Shown: positions 3,659-16,956 of the stretch, one piece after another | Numbering within the stretch: position 1 is the first letter of the stretch | How the letters are laid out: each line of letters begins with the position of its first letter | IMG/VR virus record: IMGVR_UViG_3300020582_000005 | Length of the DNA: 22,862 nt | Strand: one strand, 5' to 3' | Origin: a virus | Lineage: Duplodnaviria; Heunggongvirae; Uroviricota; Caudoviricetes | Notes under the pieces: model-generated | The model's input: the letters and a program-made list of their open reading frames with translations, nothing else | Databases searched by the model: none | Told to the model about the DNA's origin: nothing | Translations under genes and position numbers: made by a program

Positions 3659-3748
3659 TGGCGGAGAGTGCAGGATTTGAACCTGCACAAGCTTTCGCTT
3701 GACTTCAGTTTAGCAAACTGACACGTTGCCGGATTCCGTCAACTCTCC
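3659..3748 (-). tRNA. tRNA-Ser(GCT)
   Basis: GGAGAGT/ACTCTCC acceptor, long V arm, loop TT-GCT-AA. Confidence 0.93.
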
Positions 3749-4182
3749 GAATTTTCTATCTTTGCATGATTCTTACGAGTGTCCACATCTCGTTTACAAA
3801 CTTTACAATAAGTGCCGCTACGACTATCATAAAACTCAGAAACCGGTAGTGCTCTCTTGTGTCGTGAACACCATCTCATGCCATCTGGAACATTATACGG
3901 TGAACGATAGTATGAATGAGGACGATTACAATCACAATGAGAAAAAGCGATATTATCTAAATCCCAAAACAAAGACGAATCTCGTCCTTCCCAAGGCTCT
4001 TTATGCTCAACACTCAAATCTTCGGCTACAGAAATTACTTGTTTACACTTAAAACAAACATTCTGTTGTAAACAAACGAGTAAATGAAAAAGAATATTCT
4101 TTCTCAGTTTATTTGCCGCTGCACCATGCGACATTCCCAATTGCTGAAAAATACGCTGCTTTCGTAATTCATCCTTATTCAT
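3739..4182 (-). CDS. HNH endonuclease-like protein
   Basis: CFKC...SVEH...DLDNIAFSHCDCN beta-beta-alpha-Me-like motif; stop lies inside tRNA-Ser(GCT). Confidence 0.75.
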   Translation of the reverse strand: MNKDELRKQRIFQQLGMSHGAAANKLRKNILFHLLVCLQQNVCFKCKQVISVAEDLSVEHKEPWEGRDSSLFWDLDNIAFSHCDCNRPHSYYRSPYNVPDGMRWCSRHKRALPVSEFYDSRSGTYCKVCKRDVDTRKNHAKIENSES

Positions 4183-4226
4183 AAGCCTTTGACTCCTTAA
4201 AGTCGTTGACTATTTAGGACTTCCTT

Positions 4227-4367
4227 TTAATCGTTATATTCGGGGTGACAGAAAATTACTGCATTATCGTCATCTAACTTTTCAACTGTCAAGACAATCC
4301 GATCTGCACCATTCAACAACTGACGCTTAACTTCTTCAGTGATAATGTTAACAGTTTCTTCAAACAT
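4227..4367 (-). CDS. Small acidic hypothetical protein (46 aa, MFEETVNIITEEVKRQLL...)
   Basis: GAGGAA SD, ATG 4367, TAA 4227; manual translation. Confidence 0.65.
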   Translation of the reverse strand: MFEETVNIITEEVKRQLLNGADRIVLTVEKLDDDNAVIFCHPEYND

Positions 4368-4379
4368 GGTTCCTCAAAT

Positions 4380-4454
4380 TGGCAGGACGGGTCTGAGTCG
4401 AACAGACACTGCATCGTTTTGGAGACGAGCCGACTACCGCTATCTTACCGACCT
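4380..4454 (-). tRNA. tRNA-Trp(CCA)
   Basis: Loop CT-CCA-AA, G73, CCA; T-T acceptor mismatch. Confidence 0.88.
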
Positions 4455-4487
4455 ATATGAACATAAATGTGTATAACGCTTCGTAAA

Positions 4488-4564
4488 TGGAGCACGGAGT
4501 GAGACTCGAACTCACTAAGAAGCGTTTTGCAGACGCTCGCCTCGACCGATTCGGCATTCCGTGC
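4488..4564 (-). tRNA. tRNA-Cys(GCA)
   Basis: Loop CT-GCA-AA, U73, CCA. Confidence 0.93.
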
Positions 4565-4566
4565 AT

Positions 4567-4642
4567 TGGTAGCGGATAAGGGACTCGGACCCATAACTTC
4601 CACTTTGTAGGAGTGGCACTCTAGCCATTGAGTTAATCCGCT
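4567..4642 (-). tRNA. tRNA-Val(TAC)
   Basis: Loop CC-TAC-AA (C33), T-loop TCCGAGT, CCA. Confidence 0.85.
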
Positions 4643-4645
4643 ATA

Positions 4646-4719
4646 TGGTAGGGCTACCGGGACTCGAACCCGGACTACTTACTTGAAAGGCAAGCGTGCT
4701 ACCATTGCACTATAACCCC
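4646..4719 (-). tRNA. tRNA-Glu(TTC)
   Basis: Loop CT-TTC-AA, CCA. Confidence 0.92.
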
Positions 4720-4721
4720 AT

Positions 4722-4797
4722 TGGTACTCTCAGTGTGATTCGAACACACGTCACTGCTTTGAGAAAGCAGTATCCTAAACCCCTAGAAGATGGGAGC
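4722..4797 (-). tRNA. tRNA-Glu(CTC)
   Basis: Loop TT-CTC-AA, CCA. Confidence 0.88.
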
Positions 4798-4813
4798 ACA
4801 TGGTCGGACTCGC

Positions 4814-4888
4814 TGGTCGGTCTACTCGGATTCGAACCGAGATTTGCCGAGTAAGAGTCGGCGCTTCTAGCCGTTGAATTATAGACCG
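4814..4888 (-). tRNA. tRNA-Lys(CTT)
   Basis: CGGTCTA/TAGACCG acceptor, loop CT-CTT-AC; zero spacer from upstream tRNA. Confidence 0.92.
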
Positions 4889-4982
4889 TGGTAGTCGGAG
4901 CCAGATTCGAACTGACATCGTGCGCCAATCTAGCGCTTATACAGTTTATAAGACTGCCGCTCTACCATTGAGCTATCCGACT
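4889..4982 (-). tRNA. tRNA with TAT (Ile) anticodon and 24-nt variable region
   Basis: AGTCGGA/TCCGACT acceptor, loop CT-TAT-AA, V arm GCGCT/GGCGC, A73, CCA. Confidence 0.88.
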
Positions 4983-4984
4983 AT

Positions 4985-5059
4985 TGGCGATCCTAGCAGG
5001 ACTCGAACCCGCATAACTAGTTTCGAAGACTAGCGCCTTTTCCATTAGACGATAGGACC
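4985..5059 (-). tRNA. tRNA-Arg(TCG)
   Basis: Loop CT-TCG-AA, CCA. Confidence 0.92.
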
Positions 5060-5061
5060 AT

Positions 5062-5136
5062 TGGCATCCCTGAGAGGACTCGAACCCCCATCCATCCGGT
5101 AGAAACGGAGTACTCTTTCCATTGAGCTACAGGGAC
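5062..5136 (-). tRNA. tRNA-Arg(TCT)
   Basis: Loop TT-TCT-AC, CCA. Confidence 0.9.
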
Positions 5137-5138
5137 AT

Positions 5139-5213
5139 TGGCGATGACGAGGGGTATCGAACCCCCACACTCTGTCGTGACAGGACAGCGCACTACCATT
5201 ATGCTACGTCACC
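5139..5213 (-). tRNA. tRNA-Asp(GTC)
   Basis: Loop CT-GTC-AC, G73, CCA. Confidence 0.93.
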
Positions 5214-5217
5214 AAAT

Positions 5218-5294
5218 TGGCTGGCCCAGAGCGACTCGAACGCTCACCCTCTCCGTTAACAGCGGAGTGTACTACCGAATTATACGACAGGCCA
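5218..5294 (-). tRNA. tRNA-Asn(GTT), second divergent copy
   Basis: Loop CT-GTT-AA, G73, CCA. Confidence 0.92.
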
Positions 5295-5305
5295 ATTAAA
5301 ACTTC

Positions 5306-5379
5306 TGGAGCGGCTTGCGGGAATCGAACCCGCCTTTAATGCTTGGCAAGCATTCGTACTGCCAATGTACGAAAGCCGC
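5306..5379 (-). tRNA. tRNA-Gly(GCC)
   Basis: GCGGCTT/AAGCCGC, loop TT-GCC-AA, U73. Confidence 0.95.
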
Positions 5380-5381
5380 AT

Positions 5382-5476
5382 TGGGAGAGGATTCTCTGAT
5401 CCATTCCGGTTTCAGATGCGAAGCATCAAGTCAAGCCTGTTTGGTCACGGTCGGCTTTCACCATCCCTTGCGGGAG
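5382..5476 (-). ncRNA. Candidate CCA-terminated structured RNA between the two Gly tRNAs
   Basis: Several hairpins, ends in CCA followed by the array-typical AT spacer; no cloverleaf; structure by eye only. Confidence 0.35.
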
Positions 5477-5551
5477 TGGAGCGAACAACGGGATTCGAAC
5501 CCGTACGTTAAGTTTGGAAGACTCACATGCTACCATTAACATCATGCTCGC
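5477..5551 (-). tRNA. tRNA-Gly(TCC)
   Basis: Loop CT-TCC-AA, U73, CCA. Confidence 0.93.
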
Positions 5552-5553
5552 AT

Positions 5554-5632
5554 TGGTAGCGGGAGTCGGATTCGAACCGACGATAACGAGGTTATGAATC
5601 TCGTGTCTTAGGCCAGACTAGACGATCCCGCA
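5554..5632 (-). tRNA. tRNA-Met(CAT), initiator-like acceptor (U1.U72 mismatch)
   Basis: TGCGGGA/TCCCGCT, loop TT-CAT-AA; lacks three consecutive G-C anticodon pairs. Confidence 0.88.
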
Positions 5633-6018
5633 ATAGAAATCAAATTATGATCAAATTCCCAATGATGATTTGGACACAACGCTACCAAATTATTCAAATC
5701 ATTTATTTGAGCAATCGTAGCGTCATCAGGAAACTCAGATACTGCTTTCAAATGAGCGATCTCAACGTAATTAGAATATCCACATTTCGAACACTTTAGT
5801 TTATTACCACTTCGTTCCCAAATAGCAGCAGCGTGTTTTCTTATTGAACTTCTAGCTGACTGCCAATTCTTTCTCGAAGAAAATAAATCTTTCTTAGTTC
5901 TACTGCCCATAACTGAGTGCGAACTCTTAAATCTAGCGGCACAAGGACGACTACAAAACCGTAATTTAGGTTTATACGCCTCGAATTCAACGCCACAACT
6001 TAAACATAAACGCATCAT
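5608..6018 (-). CDS. HNH endonuclease
   Basis: CxxC motifs, EIAH...NNLVALCPNHH HNH motif; stop inside tRNA-Met. Confidence 0.88.
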   Translation of the reverse strand: MMRLCLSCGVEFEAYKPKLRFCSRPCAARFKSSHSVMGSRTKKDLFSSRKNWQSARSSIRKHAAAIWERSGNKLKCSKCGYSNYVEIAHLKAVSEFPDDATIAQINDLNNLVALCPNHHWEFDHNLISIAGSSSLA

Positions 6019-6219
6019 AATCCCACCGATTGATAGGAGCTACCTATCAACCAAATGAAAAGTAATCACTCACGAAAACATTTCGAACTGGACGCCTTTT
6101 CATGAGCGGGTGGCCAGCCTATGTTTCTAAACAGAACGAGTCTGATTAGAACAGCCCTACATCACGCCAGCTTAGCCCTGCAGAGCTTCAGCGTCTTGCC
6201 AGCATGATGTTATGTAAAG

Positions 6220-6294
6220 TGGCGGCTACTGAGGGAGTCGGACCCTCTCCTCTTGTTCTTCAGACAAGCGCTCTACCGTTGGAGCTACATAGCC
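6220..6294 (-). tRNA. tRNA-Phe(GAA)
   Basis: Loop CT-GAA-GA, T-loop TCCGACT, G73, CCA. Confidence 0.85.
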
Positions 6295-6295
6295 A

Positions 6296-6371
6296 TGGTG
6301 GACCTAGTCGGCTCTGCCCCGACCGCCTCTGCTGTGCAAGAGCAGCGCTCTTCTTAATGAGCTACAGGCCC
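6296..6371 (-). tRNA. tRNA-Ala(TGC) with non-canonical D/T loops
   Basis: G3:U70, A73, loop CT-TGC-AC; T-loop GGCAGAG; D-loop without GG. Confidence 0.85.
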
Positions 6372-6380
6372 AATTTAAAC

Positions 6381-6409
6381 ATTGTATCAAACTTCTAACA
6401 GTTTGTCAA
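6381..6409 (-). promoter_or_regulatory. sigma70-type promoter
   Basis: TTGACA-17 bp-TACAAT with TGn, just upstream of tRNA-Ala. Confidence 0.85.
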
Positions 6410-6417
6410 GCTTTATT

Positions 6418-6801
6418 TTATACGTAATTGACAGTTACAATTACACCAGATGACGGGGAAACCGAACCCGCTGTTCCACCAGTGGTAACACAAAGTGCTG
6501 TCAAAGCTGTACCAAACGTTTTACCTGGAGCCGAACCAGTATTATAGTTCTGTGTAATTACCGCCCCACCGGGAACATACAAAATTTCATCAGGTGCTGT
6601 CGTTCCTACTACCACGGAACCTGCCGCTAAATTATACAACTTAACATACGATGCTGCGCCACCGTTAGCCGAATTATCAACTGAAATCCAGTAAACCTTT
6701 GCCGAGGACGCTTTGATAGCATCGGCTGTATTCCCCATGGCTGTATCTGTAAAGATAACCTCATTGGCTGGCGTTGCTACAGTCACTTGTGTAATAGACA
6801 T
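6418..6801 (-). CDS. Hypothetical Thr/Ala/Gly-rich protein (putative structural)
   Basis: 127 aa, AAGGAGA SD. Confidence 0.75.
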   Translation of the reverse strand: MSITQVTVATPANEVIFTDTAMGNTADAIKASSAKVYWISVDNSANGGAASYVKLYNLAAGSVVVGTTAPDEILYVPGGAVITQNYNTGSAPGKTFGTALTALCVTTGGTAGSVSPSSGVIVTVNYV

Positions 6802-6812
6802 TTAATTTCTCC

Positions 6813-7196
6813 TTATGCTCCGTGAGCTACGCCTAGATAATCAAGCCAATAAGAAATATTTCCACCAGGATTGATAACCTGTATAATATCTAACAACAAG
6901 GGATTATCAAACGCTGAAGCGAATAAAGTTGCTGTCGATCCTTGAAGAATAGGGGTAAAATAAACCCCCAAAACGGTTCCATCTGTTGGATTAACAGCTG
7001 GACTATGAACCTTACCAAGATAATCTACGTTAATCATAACGGAAGGAGCGCCACCTGTCTGACTACCAGGACTTGCAATTTGAATCAAATCTAAATTCTG
7101 CGCTTCGTTAGAAGAAAACGCATATTGAACCGACAAGCCATTAGTTACTGAAGCTTGAACTCTAGATAACACCGCCACTGATGTTGCTGCCGCCAT
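6813..7196 (-). CDS. Hypothetical protein (putative structural)
   Basis: 127 aa, GAGGTGA SD; LDLIQI/LDIIQVI internal echo. Confidence 0.75.
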   Translation of the reverse strand: MAAATSVAVLSRVQASVTNGLSVQYAFSSNEAQNLDLIQIASPGSQTGGAPSVMINVDYLGKVHSPAVNPTDGTVLGVYFTPILQGSTATLFASAFDNPLLLDIIQVINPGGNISYWLDYLGVAHGA

Positions 7197-7213
7197 GAAT
7201 CACCTCACAAATT

Positions 7214-7301
7214 TGGTCGGAGTGAAAGGACTCGAACCTTCAAGGTCTTTCGACACCAGTTTCCAAAACTGGCAAGCTTCCATTTACTTAACTACACTCC
7301 G
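7214..7301 (-). tRNA. tRNA-Pro(TGG) with long variable arm
   Basis: C1-G72, A73, loop TT-TGG-AA; V region TGTCGAAAGACCTT. Confidence 0.85.
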
Positions 7302-7304
7302 AAA

Positions 7305-7395
7305 TGGTGGATGTGGTAGGAGTTGAACCTACAACGTCGTAAGCGACGAAGTGTTTTACAGACACCAGAACCTAGCCGGTTTGTTCATCACATCC
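7305..7395 (-). tRNA. tRNA-Tyr(GTA)
   Basis: G1-C72, A73, long V arm, loop CT-GTA-AA. Confidence 0.92.
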
Positions 7396-7397
7396 AT

Positions 7398-7469
7398 TGG
7401 AGCGGAGACACGGATTCGAACCGTGCATTCAGGCTTTACGAAAGCCAAATGGTGAGCCTCACTCACCGC
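7398..7469 (-). tRNA. tRNA-Thr(CGT), reduced D arm (possibly degenerate)
   Basis: Loop TT-CGT-AA, canonical T arm, CCA; short D region. Confidence 0.65.
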
Positions 7470-7471
7470 AT

Positions 7472-7548
7472 TGGGGTGGATAACGGGAGTCGGACCCGTC
7501 CTGGCTCTTTCACAGAGAGCAGTGCCTCACCGCTACACTATATCCACC
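7472..7548 (-). tRNA. tRNA-His(GTG)
   Basis: Encoded G-1 and C73, loop CT-GTG-AA, T-loop TCCGACT. Confidence 0.92.
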
Positions 7549-7554
7549 ATAGAA

Positions 7555-7583
7555 ATTCTATCAAACTTCTTCAAGTTTGTCAA
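7555..7583 (-). promoter_or_regulatory. sigma70-type promoter
   Basis: TTGACA-17 bp-TAGAAT with TGn, 6 nt from tRNA-His G-1. Confidence 0.85.
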
Positions 7584-7589
7584 GCTATT

Positions 7590-8003
7590 TTAAGCGTGAT
7601 CTCCTTTATCTCCCTTGGGACCTTGTGCTCCATCTTTTCCATCACGACCGGGAGCGCCATCTTTACCGGGATCGCCTTTCAAACCAGCTGGACCGAAAGG
7701 ACCTTGATCACCCTTGTCTCCCTTCATACCATCTTTACCGTCTGCTCCAGCTTTACCATCTAAACCTTTCGATCCTGCGTCCCCTTTGTCGCCTTTATTT
7801 CCTTGAGGACCTGTAGGACCTTCTACTCCGGATTTACCTTGCGGACCTGCTGGACCTACTGAACCTACATGACCCGCTAGCCCTGCGGGACCGACTGGAC
7901 CACGTGGACCTGCAGCACCAGGAACTCCGGAAACTTTATGAAACAAAGAAAAAATTAACGATACACCAGCAACACCAATAGCAATAAATGCTAGATCAAT
8001 CAT
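7590..8003 (-). CDS. Collagen-like protein with N-terminal membrane anchor
   Basis: Hydrophobic N-terminus then uninterrupted Gly-X-Y repeats. Confidence 0.9.
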   Translation of the reverse strand: MIDLAFIAIGVAGVSLIFSLFHKVSGVPGAAGPRGPVGPAGLAGHVGSVGPAGPQGKSGVEGPTGPQGNKGDKGDAGSKGLDGKAGADGKDGMKGDKGDQGPFGPAGLKGDPGKDGAPGRDGKDGAQGPKGDKGDHA

Positions 8004-8030
8004 CTATCCCCCTCAGAACAGTGATTTACT

Positions 8031-8115
8031 TGGAGCAGGCTGGAAGACTCGAACTTCCGTGGGTTTTATCCGGCAGTTTACAAAACTGCTGCTGTCGCCT
8101 CTGAGCCAAGCCTGC
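8031..8115 (-). tRNA. tRNA-Thr(TGT) with extended variable region
   Basis: GCAGGCT/AGCCTGC, loop TT-TGT-AA, 14-nt V region, U73. Confidence 0.85.
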
Positions 8116-8494
8116 GAATTTTTCTTCCTTTACCCATATTCAAACTTCTGTAAGTAGGAGTCAAAGAATGACAATTCGGACACAACAAAATAAGATTCTC
8201 AATTTTATTGTTATCCCAATGTCCATCGATGTGTTCCAACTCAACTGGAGAATGTCCTGTTAAAGGATTAATCTCGTTCCAACCACACCGCTCGCACTTT
8301 TCTCCACGAACTTTAATCAGATAAGTTCGTATGTGAGCCGATGTTTTATTAGCACCCTTATTTTGAATAATACCGGATTCTTCACCCGAAAGCCATCTTT
8401 GAATCCAGTCATTCTGTAAAACTAAACGGGCACACTTTCTACAACCCTTTGCTGCTTTTGAAACTCGTATTCCACAGTACAGGCACACTTTCAT
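8078..8494 (-). CDS. HNH endonuclease
   Basis: CERCG...VELEHIDGHWDNNKIENLILLCPNCH; stop inside tRNA-Thr(TGT) anticodon loop. Confidence 0.92.
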   Translation of the reverse strand: MKVCLYCGIRVSKAAKGCRKCARLVLQNDWIQRWLSGEESGIIQNKGANKTSAHIRTYLIKVRGEKCERCGWNEINPLTGHSPVELEHIDGHWDNNKIENLILLCPNCHSLTPTYRSLNMGKGRKIRRLGSEATAAVL

Positions 8495-8535
8495 TTTTCC
8501 TCCTTTGAGAGCCTGTACTTTCTCAAAGAATGTTA

Positions 8536-8609: not shown

Positions 8610-8747
8610 TTAAATCTTTTTCAAATATAACACAATGTCTCTAATCTTGTCAAACAAATTATACTGAAACTTGTACTCAGCATAACTAGTCAGAACACCA
8701 CCGACAAATAAAGCAACGAACAAAGCGATGAATGCGTGTAGAGGCAT
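8610..8747 (-). CDS. Small membrane protein (45 aa, MPLHAFIALFVALFVGGVLTS...)
   Basis: GGAGAT SD, hydrophobic N-terminus; TAA abuts tRNA-Thr(AGT). Confidence 0.7.
   Translation of the reverse strand: MPLHAFIALFVALFVGGVLTSYAEYKFQYNLFDKIRDIVLYLKKI
8624..8653 (-). promoter_or_regulatory. Possible internal sigma70 promoter for tRNA-Thr(AGT)
   Basis: TTGACA-18 bp-TATATT with TGn; lies inside a CDS so may be coincidental. Confidence 0.45.
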
Positions 8748-15001: not shown

Positions 15002-15271
15002 TTACATAATGTTTCCAAACAATAAAGCTGTTAACGAACAGCCTAACACAAAGAATAAGAAATCTATTCCAGAACTAAACCACGTTTGTTTATCTTCCCA
15101 AGGAGCACATCCTAAAGACTCCAGCGCCTCTTTGAAACCTGTAAAAAGAAGAGTCAACATAAATGGATGCCAGAAATGAACACGAGCGAATAAGAAAGGA
15201 AGATAAGCTCCCCAAGCTAAATGTGCTAACTGAGCCACCATCCAATTAAAATTATTTGGTTTCATGTCCAT
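15002..15271 (-). CDS. Small multi-pass membrane protein
   Basis: 89 aa with 2-3 hydrophobic segments. Confidence 0.7.
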   Translation of the reverse strand: MDMKPNNFNWMVAQLAHLAWGAYLPFLFARVHFWHPFMLTLLFTGFKEALESLGCAPWEDKQTWFSSGIDFLFFVLGCSLTALLFGNIM

Positions 15272-16361: not shown

Positions 16362-16435
16362 TGGTAGACCATCAGGGATTCGAACCCCGATTTCTCGTTA
16401 ATCGGACGAGCGTCCTACCGTTGGACGAATAGTCT
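16362..16435 (-). tRNA. tRNA-Ile(GAT) with atypical anticodon loop
   Basis: AGACTAT/ATGGTCT, loop CC-GAT-TA (C33, U37), CCA. Confidence 0.83.
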
Positions 16436-16508
16436 ATTTTATATTTATCACTGAATCTATACAAAGCCAAATCAAAACTGATAACAATATTGCTATAAGC
16501 CAAAACAT
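16434..16508 (-). CDS. Small membrane peptide (24 aa, MFWLIAILLSVLIWLCIDSVINIK)
   Basis: TAATG coupling; TAG overlaps first 2 nt of tRNA-Ile(GAT). Confidence 0.5.
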   Translation of the reverse strand: MFWLIAILLSVLIWLCIDSVINIK

Positions 16509-16642: not shown

Positions 16643-16652
16643 AAAATTCCTT

Positions 16653-16951
16653 TGGAGAGTCGATAGCCCGGATTCTGTCTTCGCTCGTGCGAACGGAGAT
16701 GATCATTCGTCTGAGCTTCCTACCCGACCAGCAAAACTTGAGCTAGAAGGTCTGTTTGGAATTGCTACTCGTATGGAGTTATCTCCAGCCTGTAGGATAT
16801 CACTTAGGGCTGGCAGCTTTACCCGTCACGTTACCGTGCTTGCAGCTTCCACAATACGATTGCTCGTGTAGTCCGGAACTTCCTCAATCGACCAGCCGCC
16901 AATCTTATGAAGATTTGACGCTGCAATCGACTGCGATCATCTGACTCTCCA
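16653..16951 (-). ncRNA. rnpB: Ribonuclease P RNA (type A-like, reduced specificity domain)
   Basis: P1 TGGAGAGTC/GACTCTCCA; P2 AGATGATC/GATCATCT; CR-I GAGGAAGTTCCGGAC and CR-V ACAGAATCCGGGCTA forming P4; P5 CTAC/GTAG; P6 GAGC/GCTC; P7 TCGTAT/ATACGA; P15 TTCC/GGAA; L15 GGGTA; P16 GACC/GGTC; AGACGAAT before P2; P19 TTCGC/GCGAA. Confidence 0.92.
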
Positions 16952-16956
16952 GAATC

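Follow-up and report, generated by a model that had tools for sequence, protein, structure and literature searches.

HNH endonuclease genes of a soil phage end inside adjoining tRNA genes, an overlap that looks like a side effect of docking on tRNA genes

Introduction

The closest described systems are nucleases encoded within the tRNA gene clusters of phages T4 and T5. T4 SegB, a free-standing homing endonuclease, is a selfish enzyme whose gene sits between tRNA genes of the T4 tRNA cluster. The site that it recognises contains a conserved motif of the tRNA T arm, and SegB promotes its own inheritance together with that of the neighbouring tRNA genes (PMC2330249). The SegB authors proposed that processing of the tRNA precursor strips the stop codon from the nuclease message and thereby limits expression, and stop-codon removal by tRNA maturation has been suggested for the T5 enzymes F-TflI/II/IV as well as for SegB (PMC2330249). 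The processing idea considered below is this published suggestion and is not new.

In the GenBank AY543070 annotation of T5, as re-derived by use of ARAGORN, hegC (F-TflI) overlaps tRNA-Ser(GGA) by 14 nt and hegD (F-TflII) overlaps tRNA-Gln(CUG) by 23 nt, and two further ORFs, T5.069 and T5.057, overlap tRNA-Asn by 24 nt and tRNA-Met by 6 nt, respectively. Cleavage activity has been shown for the T5 enzymes (Akulenko et al. 2004, as cited in PMC2330249), the only ones of the T5 set and the set described here for which this is so.

The three HNH genes described here resemble those of F-TflI and F-TflII in being free-standing HNH genes of a phage tRNA array that lie on the tRNA strand and end inside the next tRNA, and in T5-like phages homologs of one of them, HNH3, sit directly on tRNA-Thr (phage HdH2). 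The T5 enzymes differ in being larger (193-194 aa) and in having extra DNA-binding domains, and they were not among the relatives returned by searches with our three proteins. SegB differs in having another nuclease fold, GIY-YIG, and segB ends 5 nt before tRNA-Arg with no overlap, as given in the T4 record. In the tRNA punctuation of animal mitochondria, a single precursor carries protein-coding sequence joined directly to tRNA sequence, tRNA excision sets the mRNA 3' end and polyadenylation then creates a stop codon. The difference is that excision and polyadenylation there create a stop codon, whereas in the arrangement reported here excision would remove one.

Results

Three HNH ORFs end inside the next tRNA gene

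The DNA analysed (the window) is a stretch of 22,862 nt from the 109-kb genome of an uncultured soil phage. The three HNH ORFs and their adjoining tRNA genes all lie on the minus strand (Table 1). The nuclease catalytic motif is intact in all three ORFs (Pfam HNH or HNH_2, PHROG HNH families), and H-N-H and CxxC motifs are seen in the translations. Each ORF stands alone between intact tRNA genes with its own Shine-Dalgarno sequence (AAGGAG for HNH1 and a strong AAGGAGG for HNH3), and none belongs to an intron or intein.

Table 1 Features of the tRNA array discussed in the text.
Feature	Coordinates	Strand	Size	Assignment and support	Stop codon or junction
HNH1	3739-4182	-	147 aa	Free-standing HNH endonuclease ORF; Pfam HNH PF01844 E 0.0016; phrog_23251 E 1e-19	TGA at 3741-3739
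tRNA-Ser(GCU)	3659-3748	-		ARAGORN; Rfam/Infernal 58.7 bits	
HNH2	5608-6018	-	136 aa	HNH_2-type endonuclease ORF; Pfam HNH_2 E 6e-9	TAA at 5610-5608
tRNA-Met(CAU)	5554-5632	-		ARAGORN; Rfam/Infernal 50.7 bits	
HNH3	8078-8494	-	138 aa	HNH endonuclease ORF; Pfam HNH E 2e-5	TAA at 8080-8078
tRNA-Thr(UGU)	8031-8115	-	85 nt	ARAGORN; Rfam/Infernal 51.2 bits	
45-aa ORF	8610-8747	-	45 aa		Stop abuts tRNA-Thr(AGU) +1, gap 0
89-aa ORF	15002-15271	-	89 aa		Ends 4 nt upstream of tRNA-Leu(CAA)
24-aa ORF	16434-16508	-	24 aa	Putative; hydrophobic	Stop overlaps tRNA-Ile(GAU) +1/+2 by 2 nt
RNase P RNA	16648-16952	-		Compact type-A, phage-encoded; Rfam/Infernal 101 bits, E 1e-31	

An initial annotation had placed the three stop codons 10, 25 and 38 nt into tRNA-Ser, tRNA-Met and tRNA-Thr, and these overlaps were borne out, ARAGORN and Rfam/Infernal giving identical tRNA 5' ends (3748, 5632 and 8115). 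The HNH1 TGA is positions 8-10 of tRNA-Ser(GCU), the sequence of which encodes the final 3 codons and the stop. The HNH2 TAA is positions 23-25 (D arm) of tRNA-Met(CAU), which encodes the final 8 codons and the stop, and the conserved HNH2 motif HHWEFDH ends 7 codons upstream of the tRNA-Met +1. The HNH3 TAA falls within the anticodon loop of tRNA-Thr(UGU), as had been annotated, where it is U36-A37-A38; the tRNA sequence encodes the final ~11 codons plus the stop, and the homology of HNH3 to its relatives stops at residue ~127, which is the tRNA-Thr +1. This tRNA-Thr has an unusual variable region of 14 nt. For each ORF the stop codon is on the 3' side of the site at which RNase P cuts a tRNA of the same strand. 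That these are all the HNH genes also held, as they are the only Pfam HNH/HNH_2 matches in the 109-kb genome, with the caveat that the same genome has, outside the tRNA array, three more ORFs with a His-Me finger, which belong to the Endonuclease VII family.

The spacers between tRNA genes of the array are only 2-10 nt. Stop triplets in the 30 tRNAs of this phage cluster at positions 8-10 (14 of the 30), 13-15, 19-22 and 35-38, and 58% of the frames that enter these tRNAs close within 40 nt (44% in shuffles), with 74% closing inside the tRNA. Such rapid closure, together with the tightness of other ORF-to-tRNA junctions in the window (-2, 0 and 4 nt), would be accommodated if the overlaps were a coincidence or an annotation artefact, the meaningless result of ORFs happening to lie near tRNAs. 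We disfavour this explanation as highly improbable given the agreement of two programs on the tRNA 5' ends, the occurrence of overlap in 3 of 3 genes here, in 2 of 3 characterised T5 enzymes and in about half of the close HNH-tRNA pairs in >100 loci, and the strong association with tRNA identity described below.

The overlap recurs in both orientations

The HNH-tRNA overlap layout is recurrent, and beyond chance in the sense of recurring, and it is not new. The HNH1 ortholog of relative L065 has the identical 10-nt overlap at 69% nucleotide identity, and the TGA at tRNA-Ser(GCU) positions 8-10 is kept in both L065 and L066. HNH2 of the close relatives L091 and L092 gave junctions of -25 and -29 (negative values are overlaps in nt), and in the L092 ortholog (79% amino acid identity) the fusion is to another tRNA-Met allele and falls 2 codons past WEFDH. 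HNH3-family ORFs end at +1, -1, -9, -15 and -38 relative to the tRNA-Thr +1, and HNH-tRNA overlaps are found also in many unrelated phage contigs. Many family members end short of the tRNA with gaps of 0 to 88 nt, and many lie downstream of a tRNA or distant from any tRNA. Overlaps are not confined to HNH genes, as non-nuclease ORFs have them too. An ORF of the GGQ/RF-1 type in L067 overlaps tRNA-Trp by 22 nt and a 125-aa ORF of L065 overlaps tRNA-Arg by 10 nt. In L066 an Endonuclease VII ORF overlaps tRNA-Ser(GCU) by 10 nt, and the gap between a PD-(D/E)XK ORF and its tRNA is 0.

Our survey of relatives thus upheld recurrence, but not restriction of overlap to the sense strand, antisense overlaps being about as frequent. 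In a first tally of close pairs, 10 of 17 in sense and 4 of 10 in antisense orientation overlapped (Fisher p 0.44). Among 63 distinct metagenomic HNH2 relatives, overlaps were seen at 2 of 6 sense junctions (-29, -25, 3, 6, 31 and 61) and at 9 of 20 antisense junctions (range -51 to +81), the antisense overlaps being at least 14 nt. Antisense overlaps are 14-51 nt long and run into the 3' end of the convergent tRNA, as in L008 (-32), L026 (-32), L030 (-43) and L034 (-42), where the protein tail G-(L/V/F)-E-P-(S/T) is the antisense T arm. Hence, across the family the overlap is not a conserved and sense-specific trait, since antisense cases are equally common and the junctions vary. As the tRNA is on the other strand, RNase P and tRNA processing are powerless over the HNH mRNA in the antisense cases. 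The HNH1 family is always sense and inside tRNA arrays, and shows no preference for one tRNA identity; this speaks against the docking explanation given below, and the family may depend on transcription of the tRNA operon and thereby have a processing link.

HNH families are associated with particular tRNA genes

The immediate neighbour of HNH3 relatives is tRNA-Thr(UGU) in 13 of 21 contexts, in unrelated phages (binomial p ~1e-8 at p0 = 0.1). These 13 contexts are the window, L001, L004, L008 and L010, and phages iF6, OC, HdH2, LPCS28, DSL-LC03, GAP32, SCTP-2 and XbC2. For HNH2 relatives Met(CAU) accounts for 13 of the 26 close downstream tRNAs (5 sense, 8 antisense). The association with one kind of locus is family-wide: HNH3 with Thr(UGU), HNH2 with Met(CAU), and HNH1 with tRNA arrays generally, no single tRNA being favoured. 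When the tRNA-Thr(UGU) genes beside different HNH3 relatives were compared they were, outside the anticodon loop, little alike beyond generic features, and thus no shared recognition sequence is evident among them.

Presence and absence of HNH3 among relatives

A presence/absence polymorphism was seen for HNH3 only. The syntenic relative L062 (72-98% nucleotide identity) has two tRNA-Thr genes separated by a 7-nt spacer and lacks HNH3. The window tRNA-Thr(UGU) is not a sequence ortholog of the L062 tRNA-Thr(GGU) at that position, and homology returns only at the final 6 nt of tRNA-Thr(UGU). The second case is that of HdH2 and T5. T5 lacks the HNH3-family gene of HdH2, which stands exactly in place of the 10-nt spacer running from the T5.059 stop to the tRNA-Thr +1, its own stop being a TAG of which the G is G1 of tRNA-Thr. 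For HNH1 (L065) and HNH2 (L091 and L092) the relatives found either have the gene or are contigs that end at the site.

The L062 comparison, in which HNH3 comes together with a non-orthologous tRNA-Thr of odd variable region, raises the question of whether the weld was selected for linkage. Nuclease and tRNA would then be inseparable, retention of a useful or cleavage-immune tRNA allele would retain the nuclease, and gene conversion would carry both. The different tRNA-Met allele joined to the L092 HNH2 ortholog and the spread of surrounding tRNA genes by SegB (PMC2330249) also argue for such linkage. We nevertheless think it unlikely, as the tRNAs adjoining HNH3 relatives share only generic features and no second copy of the 5' half of the window tRNA-Thr was found in IMG/VR. 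Moreover, one tRNA-Thr is common to HdH2 and T5, accompanied by the HNH gene in the former and not in the latter, which indicates that the gene can arrive without a tRNA swap.

tRNA processing and the fate of the HNH messages

The initial annotation had read the overlaps as a built-in off switch by which tRNA maturation converts the HNH mRNAs to non-stop messages, with the alternative that ribosomes terminating within a tRNA might gate its maturation. Contigs from two soil RNA libraries span HNH2 through tRNA-Met to tRNA-Gly, and HNH3 to tRNA-Thr, and because they bridge the HNH-tRNA junctions co-transcription is plausible, although the contigs are of low depth, may reflect DNA carry-over and do not mark RNA ends. 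A single RNA-library contig ends at 3748 (the tRNA-Ser +1) and continues into adapter-like letters; here too a contig end is not an RNA end. The phage encodes its own RNase P RNA (Table 1), a homolog of which is carried by L066. Given the location of the stop codons 3' of the RNase P site, the plausible co-transcription and the phage RNase P RNA, cleavage at +1 would leave stop-less messages, and so the physical premise of the annotation stands.

The further step, that the stop is kept within the tRNA by selection so that RNase P generates a non-stop mRNA and tmRNA tagging or 3' decay caps a toxic nuclease, is in our judgement unlikely. It has several points in its favour besides its prior publication (PMC2330249): the position of all three stops, the recurrence of sense overlaps in T5 and many relatives, the 10-nt overlap common to HNH1 and its diverged L065 ortholog, the phage RNase P RNA, a stand-alone GGQ (RF-1 domain) protein gene in the tRNA array of one relative and, weakly, the RNA contigs that end at 3748 or bridge the junctions. 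The comparisons did not, however, support the view that the overlap exists in order to act as an off switch, since overlaps occur as often in antisense as in sense orientation, overlap length varies within families, many members end before a tRNA, follow one or are not near tRNAs, and non-nuclease ORFs overlap tRNAs as well. The three Endonuclease VII-type ORFs, being outside the array, are unable to borrow a tRNA stop, and neither a tmRNA gene nor an RF-1-domain gene was found in this genome. We consider it quite unlikely that selection has made the borrowed stop of the sense cases into a timer, with the nuclease and other array proteins completed only on the unprocessed precursor such that synthesis is early and brief, the phage RNase P RNA producing the non-stop RNAs and relatives having the GGQ gene dealing with their own stalled ribosomes.

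Proposed docking of nuclease genes on tRNA genes

The explanation we favour is that HNH1, HNH2 and HNH3 are probably homing-endonuclease genes of the free-standing kind, each docked directly on one of the tRNA genes of the array. Each cassette is minimal, a Shine-Dalgarno sequence plus an ORF without a 3' end of its own, in which the conserved nuclease core ends 2-12 codons ahead of the tRNA +1. Translation then enters the tRNA gene and stops at the first in-frame stop codon and, as stop-like triplets are found at fixed points of tRNAs (at U8-R9-R10, in the D arm and, in Thr-UGU, at U36-A37-A38), the ORF is always closed within ~40 nt. With spacers of 2-10 nt and the loss of unneeded DNA by phages, the cassette edge would become the tRNA edge and a separate stop codon would be dispensable. 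Docking is a DNA-level, family-specific property, with the gene placed upstream, downstream or antisense. Such orientation independence is what one would expect were the cleavage and homing site the tRNA gene or a sequence adjoining it, as for T4 SegB and T5 F-TflI/II/IV. From the association we infer that the HNH enzymes have the tRNA gene as their cleavage target, and gene conversion would spread the cassette, sometimes with the adjoining tRNA allele.

If the genes are docked in this way, it is likely that in the three same-strand cases the enzyme can be made only from the unprocessed tRNA precursor, RNase P leaving a stop-less, unprotected mRNA. This consequence of processing would plausibly hold enzyme expression low, but it is not why the overlap exists; the overlap looks like a side effect of docking on tRNA genes rather than a purpose-built off switch.

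Other features of the array

No match among sequenced phages was found for a protein of 537 aa or for 5.2 kb of the array. The small ORF at 16434 had been reported to overlap tRNA-Ile(GAU) by 2 nt, which is correct for a tRNA 5' end at 16435, the ORF itself being putative. The 45-aa ORF at 8610-8747 illustrates the tightness of ORF-to-tRNA junctions across the array.

HNH genes that end within tRNA genes

The IMG/VR genome record (109,128 bp, CheckV completeness 100%), of which the window covers nucleotides 11237-34098 on the reverse strand, contains 30 tRNA genes detected by ARAGORN, all of which lie in the window and every one on the (-) strand. The initial annotation had stated that each of the three HNH nuclease ORFs of this array takes its stop codon from the next tRNA, and ARAGORN, Infernal and inspection of the sequence bore this out in every detail. 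ARAGORN and Infernal agreed on the 5' ends of the three downstream tRNAs (3748, 5632 and 8115), and therefore the ORFs run 10, 25 and 38 nt into tRNA-Ser(GCU), tRNA-Met(CAU) and tRNA-Thr(UGU), respectively. Read directly from the sequence, the TGA stop of HNH1 occupies tRNA positions 8-10, the TAA stop of HNH2 positions 23-25 and the TAA stop of HNH3 positions 36-38 (U36-A37-A38). The 2-nt overlap reported for a 24-aa ORF and tRNA-Ile(GAU) was also correct, and other ORF-tRNA junctions in the window are just as tight (gaps of -2, 0 and 4). A caveat to "all three" is that the genome has three more ORFs of the His-Me-finger type (Endonuclease VII family) outside the window, none of them near a tRNA, which are probably additional free-standing nuclease genes.

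Among sequenced phages, neither a megablast search with the array nor a tblastn search with a neighbouring protein (537 aa) gave a match; the phage has no cultured close relative. The array also holds an ORF with collagen repeats between tRNA-Thr(UGU) and tRNA-His, which looks like a tail-fibre fragment and is conserved in the syntenic relative L062.

Coordinates of features in the window, the whole genome (G000:C1) and relatives' contigs (L066, L067)
Feature	Coordinates	Strand	Remarks
HNH1	3739-4182	(-)	147 aa; PF01844, phrog_23251
HNH2	5608-6018	(-)	136 aa; PF13391 HNH_2
HNH3	8078-8494	(-)	138 aa; PF01844
Hairpin upstream of HNH2	6010-6075	(-)	MFE -20.3 kcal/mol
Extra tRNA	6299-6371	(-)	Rfam only, 42 bits; missed by ARAGORN; directly upstream of tRNA-Phe
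Collagen-repeat ORF	7590-8003	(-)	137 aa
tRNA-Thr(UGU)	8031-8115	(-)	85 nt
Small ORF at tRNA-Ile(GAU)	16434-16508		24 aa
Type-A RNase P RNA	16648-16952	(-)	Rfam RF00010, 101 bits; compact, ~305 nt, bacterial
Endonuclease VII-family ORFs	G000:C1:3850-4110, 45063-45314, 68814-69062		135-161 aa; outside the window
Endonuclease ORFs (PD-(D/E)XK; Endonuclease VII)	L066:4392-4796 and L066:6072-6482
RNase P RNA homolog	L066:5486-5793		102.6 bits; within tRNA array
GGQ/RF-1-domain ORF	L067:728-1123	(+)	Pfam RF-1 domain, E 6e-20

The stop-borrowing layout is already known from a model phage. According to the T5 record, and as re-derived from the sequence with ARAGORN, hegD (F-TflII) ends 23 nt within tRNA-Gln(CUG), hegC (F-TflI) 14 nt within tRNA-Ser(GGA), T5.069 24 nt within tRNA-Asn and T5.057 6 nt within tRNA-Met. 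The T4 segB gene was ruled out as a further case, as it stops 5 nt short of tRNA-Arg in the T4 record. The layout seen here, though genuine, is of an ordinary kind, and adds an uncultured soil phage lineage to the twenty-year-old picture of the T5 annotation.

Overlaps in relatives occur in both orientations

That tRNA maturation might throttle such nucleases is an old, published hypothesis (PMC2330249), and a built-in off switch was likewise one of the two readings offered by the initial annotation. For the comparative tests we gathered homologs of the three HNH proteins from IMG/VR and sequenced phages (for HNH2 also from metagenomes), re-annotated their tRNAs with ARAGORN and took the distance from the ORF stop to the nearest tRNA. 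A comparison of sense and antisense pairs was used in place of a genome-wide random-stop null. The loci were in tRNA arrays in 11 of 12 cases for HNH3, 13 of 17 distinct cases for HNH1 and most cases for HNH2. Relatives obtained with a further ORF (6418-6801) were uninformative, that gene being mostly outside tRNA arrays.

Borrowed stops recurred. Sense overlaps were 23 nt in L028, L054 and L060, 36 nt in L047 and 22 nt in L048 (all loci of relatives), and 15 and 9 nt in the named phages iF6 and DSL-LC03. An HNH1 ortholog with 69% nucleotide identity (L065) has the 10-nt overlap of the window, and HNH2 orthologs overlap by 25 nt (L091) and 29 nt (L092), the latter being joined to a different tRNA-Met allele two codons past the WEFDH motif. 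The same families also enter the 3' ends of convergent tRNAs in antisense (32 nt in L008 and L026, 43 nt in L030, 42 nt in L034). In the metagenomic HNH2 set (63 distinct relatives), antisense overlaps of 14-51 nt were seen in 9 of 20 close pairs and sense overlaps in two of six. In the first tally of close pairs (overlap in 10 of 17 sense and 4 of 10 antisense), rates in the two orientations did not differ (Fisher p 0.44). The antisense-overlap proteins end in a G-(L/V/F)-E-P-(S/T) tail, which is the T arm translated antisense. As the mRNAs of such genes are beyond RNase P action, an RNA-processing purpose is not the general cause of stop-borrowing.

Moreover, the junction is not conserved: HNH3-family ORFs end at +1 (LPCS28), -1 (HdH2), -9, -15 and -38 relative to the tRNA-Thr +1, negative values lying inside the tRNA. 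Other kinds of ORF also run into tRNAs. In L066 an Endonuclease VII ORF ends 10 nt into tRNA-Ser(GCU), the same slot and stop as HNH1 of the window, and a PD-(D/E)XK endonuclease ORF ends exactly at the tRNA-Gly(GCC) +1. An unassigned 125-aa ORF of L065 extends 10 nt into tRNA-Arg, and a GGQ/RF-1-domain ORF of L067 22 nt into tRNA-Trp. The ~30 nt upstream of tRNA-Ser(GCU) are alike in DNA between the L066 Endonuclease VII gene and HNH1, although the reading frames differ. The L067 GGQ protein is stand-alone, encoded inside a tRNA array and weakly similar to ArfB and PrfH. GGQ-type factors release ribosomes stalled on stop-less mRNAs; no RF-1-domain gene, GIY-YIG gene or tmRNA was found in the genome of the window phage.

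Borrowed stops thus exist and recur, and we consider it probable that they are a by-product of docking, the footprint of minimal homing-endonuclease cassettes on their target tRNA genes. The antisense overlaps argue for such a footprint over a regulatory invention, and the comparative data gave no sign that overlap is maintained for processing. A selected switch, in which overlap is kept so that tRNA processing limits the nuclease, seems unlikely. Putative stripping of stops from sense messages by RNase P, keeping the nucleases scarce, would nevertheless be a reasonable consequence of docking.

Stop triplets supplied by tRNA genes

Docking would take place in an array nearly devoid of spacer DNA, and an ORF whose own stop was lost or never present would gain only 3-13 residues. 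In the tRNAs of this phage stop triplets cluster at positions 8-10 (14 of 30 tRNAs; U8-R9-R10), 13-15, 19-22 and 35-38. Of the frames entering a tRNA, 74% meet a stop before its end and 58% do so within 40 nt, versus 44% in shuffles. The homology of HNH3 to its relatives stops at residue ~127, exactly at the tRNA +1, and the catalytic motif of HNH2 ends seven codons short of +1.

Of the hairpins upstream of the HNH genes (z-scores of -1.1, -2.6 and -1.5 for HNH1, HNH2 and HNH3) only that of HNH2 stands out. This strong hairpin lies just upstream of the start; its perfect 8-bp stem is prolonged across the presumed Shine-Dalgarno region, and it may mask the ribosome-binding site, an effect described in T4 homing-endonuclease genes.

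tRNA identity beside HNH3 and HNH2 relatives

The immediate neighbour of HNH3 relatives was tRNA-Thr(UGU) in 13 of 21 independent contexts (binomial p ~1e-8, with the chance neighbour set at 10%), the tRNA being upstream, downstream or antisense. Among these contexts are phages of Enterococcus, Escherichia, Cronobacter, Synechococcus, Ochrobactrum, Xanthomonas and Salicola; in a Streptomyces phage the adjoining tRNA is tRNA-Thr(GGU). Met(CAU) accounted for half of the tRNAs lying close downstream of HNH2 relatives, which included sense and antisense cases; another group of these relatives is located on Arg(CCU) or Arg(UCU). One HNH2 relative (L096) has a tRNA-Met(CAU) gene on either side, at distances of 221 nt (upstream) and 3 nt (downstream). 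The same tally gave no tRNA-identity preference for the HNH1 family. The small HNH3 and HNH2 families thus keep to particular tRNA identities across unrelated phages (many metagenomic phages in the case of HNH2), suggesting homing enzymes specific for tRNA genes, by which tRNA alleles may be carried from phage to phage.

In L062, a syntenic relative (72-98% nucleotide identity to the window), HNH3 is absent and a 7-nt spacer separates two tRNA-Thr genes. The tRNA-Thr(UGU) of the window has a 14-nt variable region with no clear extra arm and is not a sequence ortholog of the second L062 tRNA-Thr, homology resuming only at its last 6 nt; therefore HNH3 and its tRNA look like one replacement. Possibly this long tRNA is an allele able to evade the nuclease beside it. 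L009, another relative's locus, has a tRNA-Thr(UGU) of comparable length. An exact-pattern scan of IMG/VR with the 5' half of the window tRNA gave no match, so no donor cassette was identified. A possible tRNA remnant upstream of HNH3 (~8513-8525), aligned by MAFFT to the 5' part of the L062 tRNA-Thr(GGU), was rejected, since these bases form one side of a local hairpin. The presence/absence picture is cleaner in T5-like phages than between window and L062: the HNH3-family gene of HdH2 sits exactly in place of the 10-nt spacer of T5 between the T5.059 stop and the tRNA-Thr +1, with the last base of its TAG stop doubling as G1 of the tRNA.

RNA-library contigs and RNase P RNA

The RNA data were Logan contigs from two soil metatranscriptome runs (depth 2-6), in which RNA ends, strand and level are not readable and uncovered bins carry no meaning. 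At this low depth, and with DNA carry-over possible, contigs span HNH2, tRNA-Met and tRNA-Gly (5451-5781) and HNH3 and tRNA-Thr (8040-8231). A single contig (3748-3888) ends at the tRNA-Ser +1 beside adapter-like letters, although contigs cannot show RNA ends. Allowing for carry-over, these contigs weakly hint at co-transcription and cutting near +1. The window also encodes a type-A RNase P RNA, and a homolog lies within the L066 tRNA array.

Consequences for annotation

Annotators should expect nuclease ORFs to run into tRNA genes and should not trim them. In Enterococcus phage iF6 (L083, MT909815) the HNH3-family ORF is unannotated and the tRNA strand of the record disagrees with ARAGORN. 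In Synechococcus phage DSL-LC03 (L087, OR003938) it is the tRNA-Thr(UGU) that is unannotated, and its 9-nt overlap is with the end of an annotated HNH gene.
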